From positions 1 to 4,145 of the IMG/VR virus record IMGVR_UViG_648276656_000001: a stretch of 4,145 bases of DNA; one strand, written 5' to 3'. The position numbers and the translations under genes were made by a program. The notes under the pieces are model-generated. The model searched no databases. It had not been told where the DNA came from and was given only the letters and a program-made list of their open reading frames with translations. This stretch comes from a virus (taxonomy: Duplodnaviria > Heunggongvirae > Uroviricota > Caudoviricetes). Of this stretch, positions 24 to 4,085 are shown one piece after another (position 1 is the stretch's first letter; every line of letters starts with the position of its first letter).

Positions 24-57
24 AAAAAAAAAACCCGCCATCAGGCGGTTTTGTGTT
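24..57. terminator. Bidirectional rho-independent terminator: A-run 24-33, GC stem CCGCC (35-39) / GGCGG (44-48) with 4-nt loop ATCA, then TTTTGTGTT (49-57)
   Basis: Seen directly: a perfect 5-bp GC stem flanked by A10 upstream and a T-run downstream. On the minus strand the stem is followed by ten U residues, so it should terminate the minus-strand operon; on the plus strand it is followed by UUUUGUGUU and could also stop a transcript entering from the left. Confidence 0.8.
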
Positions 58-60
58 CTT

Positions 61-382
61 TCAGTTCTTCAATTCGAATATTGGTTACTTCTGCATGTGC
101 TATCTGCGCCCATATCATCCAGTGGTTATAGCAGTCGTTGATGTCCTCGGCTTAGATAACTCTGTTGAATGGTTCTCCATTCCATTCACCTGTGACTCGA
201 AAGTGCATTTATCATCTCCATAAAACAAAACCCGCCGTAGCGAGTTCAGATAAAATAAATCCCCGCGAGTGCGAGGATTGTTAGTTGCGCTCTGCTGCTG
301 CCTTAGCCATTACCATATCCACCCAATTTCACCAGACATGATTCTCGCAATCACTATCATAACCAAAGTGATAATCACAACT
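61..382 (-). other. About 320-nt apparently non-coding 3' tail between the last CDS and the terminator
   Basis: No ORF with a credible start and SD on either strand; the longest candidates are 14-42 codons without an RBS. Contains small imperfect hairpins (e.g. AATCC-N12-GGATT at 258-279) and a second copy of the AAAACCCGCC motif (227-236) that also forms the 5' arm of the terminator (30-39). Confidence 0.4.
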
Positions 383-1033
383 TTAACTGGCGGAATTATT
401 CACCATCCTGCTCGGCGGTTCTGGTAGCGGCATCCAGTGGGTTACATTGCGGCTCTGCGTTTCGAAGAACTCCTCACCATTGCGGACAACATCAAAAAAC
501 TCACCGTTTCGATATTGCGCATAAAGAACGAATGCGCCATCACATAAAATAATTACGTGCTGACCATCATCCGGCATTCGCTCACTACAGCTTATCCAAC
601 TATCCGGAATTACCGGAGAGTTGCCGGGTTCTTTAATGTGCAAGCGAGGCTCACCATCTTTTGGTTCAGGCCACTGGCGTTCCATGTTGATCTTCAATTT
701 ATTTTCCATAGCAGCGGTAATTTCAGCATCACTGATACCAGCACGGCGCTGTGCATCCCACAACAGGAACTGCATATCAGCCCACTCGCTGAGATCGTCA
801 GGTTCGGCTGCGGCTTCCAGTGCCTCTTTTGAGAGGTGTTTCAGTGGACCAATGGGGCCAACGCAGCCAAATGTGGAGTCAGACCATTTGGCATGCTCGT
901 GGCGAATCTGTTCGCGTTCCAGCGATGCCAGTGCGATTTCATAAGCCCGACGCTCAATATTGTCTCGGACGTCCAGGCTGCCTATACGCTCTTTGATTTC
1001 TTTAATCAGTTCTTTGTCGGTGAAAGTGGTCAT
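383..1033 (-). CDS. MazG-like NTP pyrophosphohydrolase domain (DUF550-type, N-terminal) fused to a DUF551 domain (C-terminal); 216 aa
   Basis: ATG at 1033 is preceded by AAGGAG with a 6-nt spacer and lies 1 nt past the TGA of the upstream gene. The N-terminal half carries an all-alpha MazG-like signature (LSEWADMQFLLWDAQRRAGISDAEITAAMENKLKINMERQW; compare the EELADVL...LGID...KN.RR motif). The C-terminal half ends in the DUF551-like motif ...VTHWMPLPEPP. The track's longer version starting at 1156 overlaps the upstream gene by about 120 nt and has no SD. Domain names are from memory. Confidence 0.8.
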   Translation of the reverse strand: MTTFTDKELIKEIKERIGSLDVRDNIERRAYEIALASLEREQIRHEHAKWSDSTFGCVGPIGPLKHLSKEALEAAAEPDDLSEWADMQFLLWDAQRRAGISDAEITAAMENKLKINMERQWPEPKDGEPRLHIKEPGNSPVIPDSWISCSERMPDDGQHVIILCDGAFVLYAQYRNGEFFDVVRNGEEFFETQSRNVTHWMPLPEPPSRMVNNSAS

Positions 1034-1034
1034 A

Positions 1035-1637
1035 TCACTCTCCTTTAATGCGAATGCCAGCGGCGCGGATAGATTTCCATTGTTTCCACATTCGGTTGAA
1101 GTCTGTGCCTGATAAGGTTGCGTTACGGTATCCAGTTTCAGTACGCAATCCTTCAAGCGTCGATTTGGAGATACAAATTGAATGCATTACCCATGATTCA
1201 AACAAATCACGCTCCCGGGCTTCGCAACTTTGCTTACTCATCTCTTCGATACGTTCAGCCATCGCAGCACACTCTTCAAAGTTGCTTAATGCTTTTCGCT
1301 CCCATTCGGCGCATTGTTTTCCAAGCTCTGCAATCAGCTTGTCTTTGCCTTCCAGCTCAACGCGCAGCCTCCCAACCGTTAGCGCAATATCCTCGTTCTC
1401 CTGGTCGCGGCGTTTGATGTATTGCTGGTTTCTTTCCCGTTCATCCAGTAGTGCCAGCACGGTTTCTGGTCCGGCCAGAAATTTGAAGGCGTTGAGCGCA
1501 TCAATATCCACACCGTAATCTTTAAGTTCTTGTTCACTTAACAAATCATCATCAGCTGGCAACATTAACAGGCGTTCCATTGCTGGAATTGCACGTTCCG
1601 CCGCCTCACGCAGTGCCTGGTAATTAATTTCGCTCAC
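1035..1637 (-). CDS. Phage ead/Ea22-like coiled-coil protein (probable); 200 aa
   Basis: GTG start at 1637 is preceded by AAGGAGG with a 6-nt spacer and overlaps the upstream stop as GTGA. The N-terminus [16 protein letters not shown] resembles the conserved start of ead/Ea22-like prophage proteins, and the central region is rich in charged heptads (ERERNQQYIKRRDQENEDIALTVGRLRVELEGKDKLIAELGKQ). Family assignment is from memory. Confidence 0.7.
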   Translation of the reverse strand: MSEINYQALREAAERAIPAMERLLMLPADDDLLSEQELKDYGVDIDALNAFKFLAGPETVLALLDERERNQQYIKRRDQENEDIALTVGRLRVELEGKDKLIAELGKQCAEWERKALSNFEECAAMAERIEEMSKQSCEARERDLFESWVMHSICISKSTLEGLRTETGYRNATLSGTDFNRMWKQWKSIRAAGIRIKGE

Positions 1638-2077
1638 TGGTTGCCTCCTTTGCGAAGCTGTTCAGCAATACTTACGCATATCTCTGCGCCTCTAATCAGC
1701 CCCGGAACGTTCTTGTTTGGCCCAACTTCACCATCAACAAAATCAATCATCGCGTTACGAGCCATATCCACCCCCTGCGCCCGCACTTCCGCCAAGAAAG
1801 CGTCGGTAGCTGGCGTTTCGCTGTGGTGCAGGGCATCATTAATAATCATCGCAGCAACTCCGGCCTGCCCTGCATCCGTTACCGACACATGCTCAAGAGT
1901 TACGGCCATTGCGTGTTTCAGTCCGGCGTTCTCCGCCGCCAGCGCCGCGCACTTGGCCTCCGCTTCAGCAAATTTACGCACCAGATATTCAGCGTTTGTT
2001 TCGTTGACCTTTAAATCTCGTGGAATGCATTTACCTTTCAGAAATCCATCCATCTCAATTAGTGACATTTGTTTCAT
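1634..2077 (-). CDS. Hypothetical phage protein, 147 aa (153 aa if the upstream GTG at 2095 is used)
   Basis: ATG at 2077 overlaps the upstream stop as ATGA and is preceded by GGAG about 9 nt upstream. The ORF is long and uninterrupted on the operon strand, with an Ala/Glu-rich helical segment ([30 protein letters not shown]). I do not recognise a family. Confidence 0.7.
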
Positions 2078-2238
2078 TTCTTCCCACTCCGCCACATTGC
2101 ATTCAGATATTTGTTGTCATTAACAGAGCCGAAACTATTTCTCTTAAGCAATTCCTCTCTCGATGGCATTGGCTTTACGCGTTGGCGAATAATCATTTCT
2201 GCCGGAAGAATGCTGGGATTGTATGCAAGTCCTCTCAT
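2074..2238 (-). CDS. Hypothetical small basic protein, 54 aa ([54 protein letters not shown])
   Basis: ATG at 2238 is preceded by GAGGA with a 7-nt spacer, and its TGA overlaps the ATG of the next gene (ATGA at 2077-2074). The track shows a longer 105-aa frame (2074..2391), but its 5' part overlaps the 98-aa gene out of frame and has no SD. The start is uncertain; ATG 2256 is an alternative. Confidence 0.45.
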
Positions 2239-2248
2239 GGTAAATTCC

Positions 2249-2545
2249 TCAGTCATTACTGATAGCGCCATAGCGTGAGCGGTAATTACGCAGGCGCGGG
2301 TCGATATATTCAGGGAAGTGGGTATATGTGGCTTTGCGGAATGGTCGGATTGATGTCTGGTAAATTCGCTCGCGTTCTTCTTTCTCTGCAAGCCATATAC
2401 AATGGCGAAATTCCTTTTCCTCTTTCGTTTCCTGCGGTAGCGACATTATCAGGTCGTAGTTTTTTCTGAATTTATCCAGCACCTCCGATACGGAATTGCC
2501 GGAACAGCGGCGCGCGTCGTCCGCACCATACAGAGGCGCTGGCAT
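2249..2545 (-). CDS. Hypothetical phage protein, 98 aa, sitting where P22 carries abc (anti-RecBCD) genes
   Basis: ATG at 2545 is preceded by AAGGA with a 7-nt spacer, 23 nt downstream of the ssb-like stop. The ORF is complete on the operon strand. The protein is rich in charged residues ([23 protein letters not shown]). No family recognised. Confidence 0.7.
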
Positions 2546-2568
2546 AATGGAATCCTTATGTTGCTACT

Positions 2569-2952
2569 TTAGAAGGGAATTGAATCGTCGTATTCAGGAT
2601 GATTTTGATGATTGCTACTTTGCTGCTGTTGGCTGTTTCCTGAAGTTGCAAATCCAATCTTTGCATTCAGTAATTCAAGAGTGATTGATTGACCATTTTG
2701 CCCCTGATAAACATCAACCCTGATGTTTTCTCCGGTAATTTCTACAATGCCACCTTCAACAAGAACACTACGGTAGTAATCCGCTTGCGCTCCCGGCTTG
2801 GCAAATACAACGGCGCTGTAGTTTGTCCATTCTTTCTTTTTTGTCTGGCGATCGTAATACTGAACGCCAGCACGGATGTTGAATCCGATATTTTCCCCGG
2901 CCTGAAACTCTCTTGCGGGCTTGTTTAGTCTTACAGTAATCGAGTGTGCCAT
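2569..2952 (-). CDS. ssb: Phage single-stranded DNA-binding (SSB-like, OB-fold) protein with C-terminal acidic tip ...EYDDSIPF; 127 aa
   Basis: ATG at 2952 overlaps the erf stop as TAATG and has AGGAG about 10 nt upstream. The C-terminus DDSIPF matches the conserved SSB tip (E. coli SSB ends ...DFDDDIPF) and follows a Gln/Ser-rich linker (SGNSQQQQSSNHQNH). The core (KEWTNYSAVVFAK...VEITGENIRVDVYQGQNGQ) resembles the SSB OB-fold. The track's 157-aa version begins inside erf and is rejected. Confidence 0.85.
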   Translation of the reverse strand: MAHSITVRLNKPAREFQAGENIGFNIRAGVQYYDRQTKKKEWTNYSAVVFAKPGAQADYYRSVLVEGGIVEITGENIRVDVYQGQNGQSITLELLNAKIGFATSGNSQQQQSSNHQNHPEYDDSIPF

Positions 2953-3557
2953 TAAGCAGCCGCTCCTTCTAATTCGTCTCGTCTTATGTTGTAAACGTCC
3001 TGCGCTTTGTGCTGCTCCGGTGTGCCTTCGAGCATCTTCCACGCTTTGGCGAACGCCTGTTTAAGCTCTTCCACGGTGTTTTTCTGCATTGCTGCGTCAG
3101 TGAATGCTTTTAGAACCTGTCCAGGTGTAGGTGATGGTTTTGATTGCTTTGCTGCTGCGTTCTGCTGATGTTTATGCTCGTCGGTATCTGCATCTTTCGC
3201 ATCATCAATGCCGAATAAACCATTGAGGCAATACTTGCGTGCATAAGAGCTTGTAGCTCCCGTAACTTGTGCAGAATCCATTCCTTTCTTGCTTTCTTCC
3301 TCTCGTGCTAGTGCGGTTGCCGTATGACTGTTTTCGCCATCGGTGATAGTTGCCGTGGCTTTCACGTAATACCGATCACCAATCAACACAACTTCATCGC
3401 TGATTGATAAAAACAGACCATTCAGTAACGGCTTAACGCCTTCAAGAATGTCTTCGCAGCTTCTGTATTTATATTTACCGAATGAGTTGTACTGATTCTT
3501 TGGCGCGTTCAGATTCTCCTGAATAGCTGCCAGTCTTGCATAAAATTCTTTGCTCAT
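2952..3557 (-). CDS. erf: Erf-family single-strand annealing (essential recombination function) protein, P22 Erf-like; 201 aa
   Basis: The protein MSKEFYARLAAIQENLNAPKNQYNSFGKYKYRSCEDILEGVKPLL...IGDRYYVKATATITDGE...GATSSYARKYCLNGLFGIDD matches my memory of P22 Erf and the Erf family over the N-terminal DNA-binding domain. ATG at 3557 is used; the track's TTG-extended start at 3587 has no SD. The SD for the ATG is weak (GAGA). Confidence 0.9.
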   Translation of the reverse strand: MSKEFYARLAAIQENLNAPKNQYNSFGKYKYRSCEDILEGVKPLLNGLFLSISDEVVLIGDRYYVKATATITDGENSHTATALAREEESKKGMDSAQVTGATSSYARKYCLNGLFGIDDAKDADTDEHKHQQNAAAKQSKPSPTPGQVLKAFTDAAMQKNTVEELKQAFAKAWKMLEGTPEQHKAQDVYNIRRDELEGAAA

Positions 3558-3658
3558 ATGTTTGTTCTCAGAATGGACATGGCCCAAGGAAATAACGCTG
3601 ATTTAATACTTCGACTCGGGACAAATTAAGGCATACCCGCATTCCTTCGCGGTCGCCA

Positions 3659-3817
3659 TTATGGCGATACCAGAGAGCTTTCTGCGTGTACATGCGTCTC
3701 TGTAACTTGCTCTCCTTCACTGTGGTTGCAAGTGACATGAATATCTCCTTCGTTACCGATTAATTCTTTCATCTGACGAATGAATTCTTCGTCTGACCAG
3801 TTATCTGTAAAACTCAT
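3659..3817 (-). CDS. Small acidic hypothetical protein, 52 aa (MSFTDNWSDEEFIRQMKELIGNEGDIHVTCNHSEGEQVTETHVHAESSLVSP), in the position of P22 arf
   Basis: Hand translation. ATG at 3817 overlaps the Kil-like stop as ATGA, and its TAA overlaps a further ATG (TAATG at 3661-3657). There is no separate strong SD (AGGA lies directly against the ATG), so expression would rely on translational coupling. Not in the ORF track because it is under the length cutoff. Confidence 0.45.
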   Translation of the reverse strand: MSFTDNWSDEEFIRQMKELIGNEGDIHVTCNHSEGEQVTETHVHAESSLVSP

Positions 3818-3966
3818 TTCCTGCGATACCACGGAAGGTTGATAGCTGATTTCATCGCTTTATTTGCTTCAAGCCACATTTTTGAATCACCAATAAATCT
3901 GGCTATTACTGCTTTGTTTTGTGCCGCACGAAGCATCTGGTGATTAATGGCTATTTCATTGCGCAT
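3814..3966 (-). CDS. kil: Kil-like host cell-division inhibitor peptide, 50 aa (MRNEIAINHQMLRAAQNKAVIARFIGDSKMWLEANKAMKSAINLPWYRRK)
   Basis: Hand translation. ATG at 3966 is preceded by GGAGG with a 4-nt spacer; an alternative ATG at 3936 has no SD. The core motif IARFIGDSKMWLEA resembles my memory of lambda Kil (...IATFIGDEKMFREA...), and the gene lies between a cIII-like gene and erf as in lambda and P22. Overlaps the cIII-like ORF by 16 nt. Confidence 0.6.
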   Translation of the reverse strand: MRNEIAINHQMLRAAQNKAVIARFIGDSKMWLEANKAMKSAINLPWYRRK

Positions 3967-4085
3967 AACGCCTCCAGTTGTTTCTTTGCTGCTCTGATTA
4001 ATTGTTTAACTCGGCGTGATAATTCAGATTCGTGCGGGTAGAAAGCGGACATGACGCCGCTACCCGCGAGCTGAAAGTGCATCAT
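3951..4085 (-). CDS. cIII: CIII-like peptide (putative FtsH inhibitor that stabilises CII), 44 aa (MMHFQLAGSGVMSAFYPHESELSRRVKQLIRAAKKQLEALCAMK)
   Basis: Hand translation. ATG at 4085 has a very good SD (AAGGAG, 6-nt spacer). The central stretch P-x-ES-L-x-R-(I/V)-x-(K/R)-x-L...K+L is a predicted amphipathic helix resembling lambda CIII (PSESLLERITRKLRDGWKRLIDIL, from memory), and the gene sits immediately upstream of kil. Confidence 0.6.
   Translation of the reverse strand: MMHFQLAGSGVMSAFYPHESELSRRVKQLIRAAKKQLEALCAMK

Follow-up and report, generated by a model that had tools for sequence, protein, structure and literature searches.

An abc2 gene and its DUF2737 neighbour in the early-left operon of an HK97/HK022-like prophage

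Phage proteins differ in how they handle the host RecBCD enzyme. With Gam of lambda, the DNA-binding site is obstructed and every RecBCD activity is inhibited; Abc2 instead attaches to RecC, and the enzyme stays active in an altered form (PMC9836394; PMC12315714). In the case of P22 Abc2, RecBCD with Abc2 on its RecC subunit becomes Chi-blind and is redirected (PMC9836394; PMC5928155). Structures of P22 Abc2 on RecBCD have been solved with the E. coli enzyme (8B1T and 8B1U), in which Pro68 of Abc2 is placed in the active site of PpiB (PMC9836394). According to the literature, no phage carries such an inhibitor without a recombinase. The gene order in P22 is erf-abc1-abc2-orf56-eaE, and the annotated order in HK97 is erf-gp40-abc2-gp38-gp37. 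Both Abc2 and HK97 gp40, the latter named SSB-1b on the basis of its predicted fold, have been catalogued as components of the Rec module (PMC12315714). A recent preprint described the OLD defence, which fires when RecBCD is compromised; Gp33 was identified as an OLD trigger and proposed as a new RecBCD manipulator, while Oad2 of HK446 binds and directly inhibits the P2 OLD nuclease, a tRNase (bioRxiv 10.64898/2026.07.10.737580).

An HK97/HK022-like lambdoid prophage of E. coli is the source of the 4,145-nt stretch of DNA analysed here (the window), which represents the early-left (pL) operon of that prophage and is read from the minus strand. On that strand the gene order is cIII, kil, gp33-like, erf, SSB-1b, abc2, DUF2737, EaE/Oad2-family, Ead/Ea22 and dATP/dGTP-PPase-DUF551. 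The following features were assigned:

3951-4085, minus strand: cIII (PF08134, E 2e-30)
3814-3966, minus strand: kil (PF06301, E 1.7e-20)
3659-3817, minus strand: homologue of Gp33 of HK75/HK446, 52 aa, acidic, pI 4.4 (phrog_2123)
3568-3738, minus strand: basic ORF of 56 aa, HK97 gp42-like (phrog_1723, E 9.4e-36)
2952-3557, minus strand: erf, Erf-type single-strand annealing protein, 201 aa (PF04404, E 3e-44; phrog_155, E 2.2e-57)
2569-2952, minus strand: divergent SSB-like protein, 127 aa, corresponding to HK97 gp40 ('SSB-1b') (phrog_44)
2249-2545, minus strand: abc2, anti-RecBCD protein 2, 98 aa (PF11043, phrog_656, PDB 8B1T/8B1U)
2074-2238, minus strand: DUF2737 gene, 54 aa (PF10930, phrog_1117)
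1634-2077, minus strand: EaE/HK97-gp37/Oad2-family protein, 147 aa (phrog_614)
1035-1637, minus strand: Ead/Ea22-like protein, 200 aa (PF13935, E 2.7e-29)
383-1033, minus strand: dATP/dGTP pyrophosphohydrolase domain with DUF551, 216 aa (PF04447, E 3.3e-42; PF04448, E 3.2e-21)
35-48, unstranded: hairpin resembling a bidirectional terminator, located where the leftward operon has its distal end (CCGCC-n4-GGCGG; T-runs present on either strand)

The ORFs of 98, 54 and 147 aa located after erf and the SSB-like gene had been pointed out in a sequence-only reading of this DNA. They are present as stated there, with exact coordinates and all on the minus strand, and are well-supported genes with hundreds to thousands of homologues each. 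The genes are tightly packed. The 54-aa gene starts 10 nt after abc2 and is preceded by a GAGGA that overlaps the abc2 stop codon and is Shine-Dalgarno-like. Its own stop overlaps the start of the 147-aa gene in ATGA, and at the stop of the latter gene there is a further overlap, with the GTG start of the Ead/Ea22-like gene. The erf gene is located two genes upstream of abc2 in the same operon, and its product is 74% identical to Erf of P22. At the other end, the hairpin aligns with an annotated putative terminator of HK97. Scanning six proteins against the PADLOC defence-system models gave no match, and none of the 98-, 54- and 147-aa proteins matched an entry in NCBIfam or PADLOC.

The 98-aa protein and RecBCD

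The 98-aa protein matched PF11043 (Anti-RecBCD_p2) over its entire length (residues 1-98 on profile positions 1-97 of 97; E 4e-62, 206.9 bits with a cut-off of 25). Similarly strong matches were obtained with phrog_656, annotated as 'abc2 anti-RecBCD' (E 3.4e-56), and with P22 Abc2 in PDB entry 8B1T_A (E 2.3e-56). The window protein and P22 Abc2 are 94% identical over the full length and differ by seven substitutions, five of which are located in the C-terminal third, a region that is disordered in the structure and has no assigned role (PMC9836394). In the part built on RecC in 8B1T (residues 6-52) the only difference is P11A, and in residues 53-66, the extension built with PpiB, it is S65A. 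Pro68 is invariant in seven out of seven aligned variants, window copy included. In HK97, HK022 and E. coli prophages the gene is already annotated, as abc2 or as 'phage anti-RecBCD protein', with the order erf, SSB-like, abc2; in the E. coli prophages it adjoins a 'DUF2737 family protein'. We are highly confident from these comparisons that the 98-aa ORF is abc2, a known gene, and that the RecBCD slot is filled by a known factor predicted to act as P22 Abc2.

Because of the 94% identity, the mechanism of P22 Abc2 was transferred to the window protein, which we infer to act on E. coli RecBCD in the same manner. The N-terminal helices of Abc2 would bind to the Chi-recognition ('inactivated helicase') domains of RecC. 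RecBCD would not be blocked by this binding; instead it would become unresponsive to Chi, cut the 5' strand more and be suppressed in RecA loading. The altered enzyme would deliver 3' ssDNA, which is the substrate of the phage annealing protein Erf, and host PpiB would engage Pro68. The protection of linear DNA ends, which had been assumed as the mechanism in the sequence-only reading, has to be corrected here: P22 Abc2 is not an end blocker of the Gam kind and hijacks RecBCD through RecC, with no shielding of DNA ends.

The same reading had considered the three proteins as unassignable and the slot as devoid of a known RecBCD factor, so that one of the ORFs would encode a novel, family-less RecBCD inhibitor. 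The window indeed has no homologue of Gam or Abc1, which speaks for such a factor. Yet the 98-aa ORF is Abc2 by every test applied and all three proteins gave full-length matches to catalogued families (PF11043, PF10930 and phrog_614). The Pfam, PHROG and PDB matches already refute this reading, and a novel inhibitor is very improbable. The expectation that at least one of the genes has an anti-RecBCD or anti-defence role stood, with abc2 and, with some support, with the 147-aa member of the Oad2 family; the new factor in an empty slot did not. Nor did homology place all three proteins in families with unrelated functions.

The statement that no gam or abc was recognisable was wrong for abc2 and right for gam and abc1. 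None of the 10 window proteins scanned with Pfam profiles matched Gam (PF06064), and the best tblastn match of P22 Abc1 to the window had an E-value of 0.67. A hidden Abc1 or Gam elsewhere in the window was rejected on these two results. The place held by abc1 in P22 is taken here by the gene of a divergent SSB-like protein. This 127-aa protein matched phrog_44 (E 1.8e-28), while it scored 16.4 bits with TIGR00621 (cut-off 53.95), had no match in Pfam and reached an E-value of 0.042 with the SSB of PDB entry 7D8J. Its C-terminal end, ...EYDDSIPF, resembles the acidic C-terminal tip of bacterial SSB. No Chi site is present in the window, a count that is uninformative at such length given a chance expectation of only 0.09; it is consistent with the literature, according to which Abc2 phages avoid Chi.

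Abc2 has already been characterised genetically, biochemically and structurally, and the layout of the module has been published for HK97/HK022 and catalogued again in 2025. The gene considered as unassignable is already known and its finding is ordinary.

The DUF2737 protein

The 54-aa protein matched PF10930 (DUF2737) with residues 1-52 on profile positions 1-52 of 53 (E 3.4e-30, 104.1 bits with a cut-off of 25), and phrog_1117 with an E-value of 1.5e-37. It is basic (pI 10.7), and PF10930 was found in all of its 170 homologues. The equivalent genes are orf56 of P22 (74% identity at the protein level), gp38 of HK97, HK75_29, HK446_028 and gene 23 of Sf6. The gene is conserved, translationally coupled and placed last in the Rec module, at its distal edge, and has no assigned function. 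A search of the literature for DUF2737, PF10930, hkaI and orf56 returned nothing relevant.

Profile searches and structure prediction had been proposed in the sequence-only reading. Profiles assigned the 98-aa protein to Abc2, the 54-aa protein to DUF2737 and the 147-aa protein to phrog_614; in PDB sequences, nothing credible was obtained for the latter two. A match in PDB sequences to the N-terminus of an aldehyde dehydrogenase (E 1.4e-4) involved an Ala-rich region and was treated as compositional. Confidence was low (pLDDT 63) in the AlphaFold2 models of the 54- and 147-aa proteins, which were built from family alignments, and searching with these models recovered no fold. For the 54-aa protein, three short helices were predicted (pLDDT 63.2), and Foldseek gave no significant match, with none at all in BFVD.

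The genomic context of DUF2737 was analysed in 147 non-identical neighbourhoods with enough upstream sequence. The upstream gene was abc2 in 132 of them, either directly (104) or with one inserted Sf6-gp24-like gene (28), and in another 10 it was a module with RecT, Sipho_Gp157 (Mu Gam-like) and an Abc1-like protein. In temperate-phage neighbourhoods, DUF2737 followed Abc2 or the Mu-Gam-like/Abc1-like pair without exception (142/142). Conversely, DUF2737 was present in every informative Abc2 locus (79 of the 79 IMG/VR loci), and the two also occur together in P22, HK97, HK75, HK446, ES18, Sf6, Phi75 and an Stx2a phage. The pairing outlasts swaps of the recombinase (Erf, the P-loop AAA_24 protein of the HK620 'Sak4' kind, or RecT), of the SSB type and of the downstream gene. 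In comparison with the window, Abc2 of the Stx2a phage is 62% identical and its DUF2737 protein 94%, which indicates recombination between the two genes with the pairing kept. Abc2 or DUF2737 served as bait for collecting the loci, which are closely related to each other (most Abc2 copies are 95-100% identical). For this reason, the linkage may reflect inheritance instead of selection.

One explanation for this context is that DUF2737 would be an unrecognised component of RecBCD handling, for instance a cofactor of Abc2 or Mu-Gam-like proteins, or else a second factor modulating either RecBCD itself or a defence by which RecBCD manipulation is sensed. The constant position behind a RecBCD-directed gene across three recombinase types, its presence in every informative Abc2 locus and the survival of the pairing after recombination between the genes would fit such a role. 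So would the GAGGA at the abc2 stop and the dN/dS of about 0.27 in the fetched loci, which equals that of abc2. This evidence is however positional and comes from bait-fished, closely related loci, and the literature search brought nothing in its favour. Expressed from plasmids, P22 Abc2 functions on its own. The RecBCD-Abc2 complex was also assembled without orf56 (PMC9836394). Finally, DUF2737 is found in virulent Guernseyvirinae with no Abc2 nearby (about 470 of 695 phage records, where it is located among small early genes), and truncated or frameshifted copies occur in eight loci. A role in RecBCD handling therefore appears unlikely.

The presence of DUF2737 alone in virulent phages and its occasional inactivation are better accommodated if the gene is unrelated to RecBCD, being a small host-takeover or accessory gene at the start of the variable 'ea' region that hitch-hikes by adjacency. 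The gene overlaps the start of its downstream neighbour (ATGA in the window), and this neighbour belonged to the EaE/Oad2 family in 100 out of 149 cases, so that the two could form one unit. On the other hand, the downstream partner varies (Ea22 in 8 cases, another gene in 40), while in temperate phages the upstream gene is always a RecBCD-handling one. On balance, we lean slightly towards hitch-hiking by adjacency. It is also conceivable, although improbable, that the distal edge of the Rec module would harbour a small anti-defence cassette made up of DUF2737 and the overlapping Oad2-family gene, in which DUF2737 would act as a cofactor or counter immune sensors of RecBCD manipulation.

An obligate Abc2-DUF2737 pair was rejected, as 10 temperate loci lack Abc2 and the Guernseyvirinae lack Rec genes nearby. 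In species-representative genomes, the scan for DUF2737 delivered only six loci. Five were Escherichia/Shimwellia prophages, all with abc2; the sixth was a contig labelled Taishania, the DUF2737 protein of which is identical to that of Salmonella phage SETP13, and which probably derives from a SETP13-like phage. DUF2737 stands out in the window as a small, conserved and unstudied gene linked to RecBCD-handling genes.

The 147-aa protein and the Gp33-like reading frame

The 147-aa protein matched phrog_614 over its full length (E 1e-51, profile positions 27-211 of 214) and had no match in Pfam, NCBIfam or PADLOC. The same PHROG was the top match of Oad2 (HK446 gp27, 8.3e-53), HK75_28 (1.2e-60), HK97 gp37 (9e-55) and P22 EaE (4.6e-55); the relation of Oad2 to P22 EaE and to Ea22 fusions has been proposed in the preprint (bioRxiv 10.64898/2026.07.10.737580). 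Compared with Oad2, the window protein shows 45% identity (E 2e-40). It is composed of conserved linkers and variable modules in a mosaic arrangement. Both proteins have in common the N-terminal module, the AAENAG.K motif, a stretch of 15 residues (letters not shown) and QLRKGGNQ at the C-terminal end, and they diverge in the variable modules of the middle and C-terminal parts. The AlphaFold2 model was all helical (pLDDT 63.4), and Foldseek gave no significant match (best PDB E-value 3.1).

The window also contains a homologue of Gp33. ORF 3659-3817 encodes a 52-aa product with an identity of 92% to HK75_33 and of 88% to HK446_033, and phrog_2123 was obtained for both the window ORF and Gp33. 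The 56-aa ORF (3568-3738) overlaps it by 80 nt in another frame. This split two-frame arrangement (Gp33-like/gp42-like) was found in 134 fetched loci, and the fused form only in HK97. The Gp33-like ORF lies outside the interval covered by the sequence-only reading (2074-2545).

The 147-aa protein may be considered as a candidate anti-defence protein of the Oad2 type, which would bind a nuclease of the OLD family (ATPase-TOPRIM) and prevent its activation, with the variable modules determining the allele or system that is targeted. The top PHROG common with Oad2, the 45% identity, the shared modules and motifs and the gene position after abc2-DUF2737, which is that of oad2 in HK446, point in this direction. 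A counter-measure would also make sense in a phage encoding a homologue of the OLD trigger Gp33, and the variable segments are extremely mosaic, which fits the arms-race interface argued for in the preprint (bioRxiv 10.64898/2026.07.10.737580). Against it, the variable modules are unlike those of Oad2, the structure model is of low confidence with no fold match, and the EaE/Oad2 family is very large (>7,900 matches) and mostly uncharacterised. Moreover, the HK75 homologue of Oad2, although closer to it (54% identity), gave no inhibition of OLD (bioRxiv 10.64898/2026.07.10.737580); the same figure of 54% was obtained here between HK446_027 and HK75_28. Because this closer homologue did not protect, the activity of Oad2 cannot be transferred to the 147-aa protein. 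An active Oad2-type protein is a tentative and rather less favoured interpretation, and anti-OLD activity of the window copy is doubtful. With its homologues of Gp33 (OLD trigger) and Oad2 (OLD inhibitor), the window belongs to a type of locus that is being actively investigated as a hotspot where recombination and immunity come into conflict.

Comparison with known phage modules

The role of neutralising RecBCD for phage recombination is shared with Gam of lambda (PF06064), while no sequence match to Gam is present in the window. In P22, Abc2 has the same size as in the window, with the RecC-binding N-terminal helices and Pro68, and abc2 is located in both cases in the Rec module of the pL operon, downstream of erf and followed by orf56/DUF2737. 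The two differ on the erf side of abc2, where P22 has abc1 and the window a divergent SSB-like gene, and in the host, which is Salmonella for P22 and E. coli for the window. P22 Abc1 has a HTH/Myb-type appearance (phrog_323) and is unrelated to the SSB-like protein that occupies its position. The Gp33-like ORF resembles P22 Arf in being small, strongly acidic and located between kil and erf, and in the N-terminal (W/F)SDEEFI motif; this similarity extends over no more than 7 residues (E 0.013 in one pairwise comparison). As for HK446 Oad2, it is like the 147-aa protein in phrog_614, N-terminal module, linker motifs and position after abc2-DUF2737, and exceeds it in length by 28 aa.

The Rec modules of HK97, HK022, HK75 and HK446 (gp33-like, Erf, gp40/SSB-1b, Abc2, gp38, gp37) have a gene order identical to that of the window, with 94-100% identity for Erf, SSB-1b, Abc2 and DUF2737. 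The difference lies in the 147-aa gene and the genes beyond, which represent a different mosaic combination, and coverage of the window is below 80% in each single record of a phage or of E. coli. The window is a further mosaic of the HK97/HK022/HK75/HK446 type of Rec module.

Gene content of the window and the 98-aa protein

The ORF scan placed all long ORFs of the window on the minus strand, closely packed.

Features of the window (coordinates, strand, identity)
3951-4085 (-), cIII (PF08134)
3814-3966 (-), kil (PF06301)
3659-3817 (-), acidic ORF of 52 aa (phrog_2123)
3568-3738 (-), basic ORF of 56 aa (phrog_1723), overlapping the 52-aa ORF by 80 nt in another frame
2952-3557 (-), erf (PF04404, E 3e-44)
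2569-2952 (-), divergent SSB-like protein of 127 aa (phrog_44, E 1.8e-28)
2249-2545 (-), 98-aa ORF, abc2 by homology
2074-2238 (-), 54-aa ORF, DUF2737
1634-2077 (-), 147-aa ORF, EaE/Oad2 family
1035-1637 (-), Ead/Ea22-like protein
383-1033 (-), dATP/dGTP-pyrophosphohydrolase + DUF551 protein
35-48, terminator-like hairpin, bidirectional

HK022, HK106, HK97, Stx-converting phages and many E. coli prophages matched the window piecewise with 95-97% identity. None of the phage and E. coli records spanned at least 80% of it, indicating that the window is another mosaic of known parts. The small gene at 41-208 (-), which is conserved among E. coli prophages, is interrupted by a premature stop (codon 19 is TAA, GAA in the E. 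coli copy), while the remaining frame is otherwise intact. Its E. coli prophage counterpart (55 aa, annotated as hypothetical protein) is located just before xis.

The 98-, 54- and 147-aa ORFs exist with exactly the coordinates and lengths proposed in the sequence-only reading, where they were considered unassignable. Profile searches placed all three in families, namely Abc2 (PF11043), DUF2737 and phrog_614, respectively. Structure prediction, as well as fold and PDB searches, brought nothing further for the 54-aa and 147-aa proteins.

The 98-aa protein is identified by homology as Abc2. At full length it matched Anti-RecBCD_p2 of Pfam (PF11043; 206.9 bits, cut-off 25, E 4e-62), and it also matched the PHROG 'abc2 anti-RecBCD' (E 3.4e-56) and P22 Abc2 as resolved with RecBCD by cryo-EM (8B1T/8B1U; E 2.3e-56). 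Identity to P22 Abc2 is 94%, the seven differences being P11A, A65S, K76H, I78P, one inserted Tyr, D87N and N98D. One of these lies in residues 6-52, which were built on RecC, and another in residues 53-66. In the P22 structure, Pro68 sits in the active site of host PpiB (PMC9836394); it is invariant in the seven aligned variants. In HK97 (gp39), HK022, HK106 and further phages this gene bears the name abc2, and E. coli prophage records call it 'phage anti-RecBCD protein'. The HK97 gene order erf-gp40-abc2-gp38-gp37 is exactly that of the window. HK97 gp40 was described as a divergent SSB ('SSB-1b') in a 2025 survey of lambdoid Rec modules, where Abc2 is one of four anti-RecBCD types (PMC12315714).

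The RecBCD slot of the window is filled by abc2, an already known gene. Since the 98-aa ORF is Abc2 by homology, the earlier statement that no gam or abc was recognisable was wrong for abc; it stood for gam (no Pfam match among window proteins) and for abc1 (best tblastn of P22 Abc1 against the window, E 0.67). The proposed anti-RecBCD candidate turns out to be this known abc2, so that the interpretation holds only trivially. The abc2 module is already on record in HK97, HK022 and E. coli prophages.

The DUF2737 gene

The 54-aa protein matched Pfam DUF2737 over its full length (104 bits, cut-off 25) and is 74% identical to P22 orf56, 96% to HK97 gp38 and 91% to Sf6 gene 23. It is basic, with a pI of 10.7 and a net charge of +6.5. 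The dN/dS across 82 distinct nucleotide versions was 0.27, the same value as for abc2, and the C-terminal motif PxPxREELxxRNSF...NKYLNxMW is retained, virulent Guernseyvirinae included. The 54-aa ORF is a real gene. Literature searches on DUF2737 returned nothing on function.

DUF2737 was located downstream of Abc2 in every informative locus fetched with Abc2 (79/79 for IMG/VR), and also in P22, HK97, HK75, HK446, ES18, Sf6, Phi75 and an Stx2a phage. Pooling of the fetched loci gave 151 non-identical neighbourhoods, 147 of them with enough upstream sequence. DUF2737 directly followed abc2 in 104 of these, and was separated from it by an inserted Sf6-gp24-like gene in 28. Another Rec module, with RecT (PF03837), Sipho_Gp157 and an Abc1-like protein, preceded it in ten. 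Four had no upstream Rec gene (three Guernseyvirinae phages and one bacterial contig with the same protein), and the remaining one carried a frameshifted DUF2737 copy. The upstream side is variable (SSB-1b, bacterial-type SSB, an extra Sf6-gp26-like gene, Abc1), and so is the recombinase, either Erf or P-loop (AAA_24) proteins of the kind called Sak4 in HK620. Downstream, members of the EaE/Oad2 family (100), Ea22 (8) or other genes (40) were found.

In the ten loci with the other Rec module (L121, L131, L132, L135, L137, L139, L141, L145, L156 and L173; ~970-3165) the distal end is the same as in the abc2 loci. The module starts with a 103-aa protein (phrog_3486), RecT, Sipho_Gp157 (PHROG 'Mu Gam-like end protection') and a 104-aa Abc1-like protein, which shares its PHROG with P22 Abc1. 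DUF2737 comes next, in some cases after an Sf6-gp24-like gene, and then a gene of the EaE/Oad2 family. Abc1-like proteins therefore accompany two unrelated RecBCD-directed proteins, Abc2 and the Mu-Gam-like one. Salmonella phage SETP13 has exactly the DUF2737 protein that the bacterial contig (L096, NZ_JACVEL010000022.1; label Taishania pollutisoli) encodes, and the contig probably derives from a Jersey-like phage, e.g. by contamination, rather than representing a Taishania gene.

The constant position of DUF2737 beside RecBCD-handling genes fits a functional tie, but the evidence is positional and comes from closely related loci that were selected with bait genes. In plasmid experiments Abc2 is functional without orf56, which counts against a necessity of DUF2737. 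DUF2737 is also found by itself in virulent phages, is truncated or frameshifted in eight loci, and was dispensed with when the RecBCD-Abc2 complex was made for structural work (PMC9836394). A RecBCD-related role of DUF2737 is considered unlikely. Seven IMG/VR loci (L053, L057, L059, L060, L061, L074 and L075) share only the C-terminal half of DUF2737, and one E. coli prophage (L002:4224-4389) has a frameshifted copy, indicating that the gene is dispensable in at least some prophages.

The 147-aa protein and the small ORFs upstream of erf

The 147-aa protein matched phrog_614 over its full length (E 1e-51), while no Pfam, NCBIfam or PADLOC match was obtained. More than 7,900 relatives were found, and an identical protein is on record in E. 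coli MS 182-1. Alignment A2, made of this protein and its EaE/Oad2-family relatives, is a mosaic of conserved pieces (the N-terminal module, [28 protein letters not shown] and the C-terminal QLRKGGNQ) with hypervariable segments between them. Many relatives combine the same C-terminal two-thirds with an N-terminal domain of the Ead/Ea22 type in one fusion. In the protein encoded at 1634-2077 (-) and its relatives, the hypervariable cassettes are set apart by short linkers that are nearly invariant ([36 protein letters not shown]) and resemble in-frame recombination joints at which modules would be swapped.

According to a July 2026 preprint (bioRxiv 10.64898/2026.07.10.737580), HK446 gp27 (Oad2) binds to the nuclease P2 OLD and keeps it from being activated, its 54% identical HK75 homologue gives no protection, and Oad2 is related to P22 EaE and Ea22 fusions. 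Oad2 and this homologue correspond to HK446_027 and HK75_28 of the phage records, both with the annotation 'similar to HK97 gp37', and their identity is exactly 54%. The top family is phrog_614 for both, for HK97 gp37 and for P22 EaE. With 45% identity to Oad2 (E 2e-40), the 147-aa protein thus belongs to the Oad2/EaE family, although its variable modules differ from those of Oad2. That it might inhibit OLD or another target is a tentative possibility.

Should the module contain an uncharacterised RecBCD factor, the current evidence points upstream of erf, and not to the 98-, 54- and 147-aa ORFs. HK75 Gp33 alone was reported to trigger the toxicity of the P2 OLD abortive-infection nuclease and was proposed as a new RecBCD inhibitor or manipulator (bioRxiv 10.64898/2026.07.10.737580). 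The 52-aa ORF (3659-3817 (-)) shares 92% identity with HK75_33 and 88% with HK446_033. Its resemblance to P22 Arf is a weak lead: both are small, strongly acidic, located between kil and erf, and display an N-terminal (W/F)SDEEFI motif. Both small ORFs, the acidic one and the basic one at 3568-3738 (-), are conserved. Two extra bases in the HK97 record join them into 'gp42.1' (83 aa); the split arrangement was present in all 134 other fetched loci, suggesting that the fusion in HK97 is either specific to that lineage or due to a sequencing error. Bacterial SSB recruits partners via its acidic C-terminal tip, which is resembled by the end (...EYDDSIPF) of the SSB-like protein (2569-2952 (-)); the rest of the latter barely matches SSB profiles.

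Abc2 in comparison with P22 and lambda

By homology, the Abc2 of the window would act as P22 Abc2, a direct transfer to this E. coli phage since the work on P22 Abc2 used RecBCD from E. coli. In a 2022 study (PMC9836394), P22 Abc2 left the activities of isolated RecBCD largely unchanged. Earlier work cited therein described Abc2-modified RecBCD as unresponsive to Chi, with more 5'-strand cutting, and no longer supporting the RecA-loading-dependent SOS response. In the working model, the hijacked RecBCD makes ssDNA for Erf, the loading of Erf being a proposed step (PMC9836394; also PMC5928155). Because RecBCD is hijacked in this model, the premise of the sequence-only reading that DNA ends need protection from RecBCD is only loosely right. 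Lambda Gam is a RecBCD blocker, and Abc2 is not Gam-like in this respect. Compared with the erf-abc1-abc2 order of P22, the window carries the SSB-like gene in the place of abc1.
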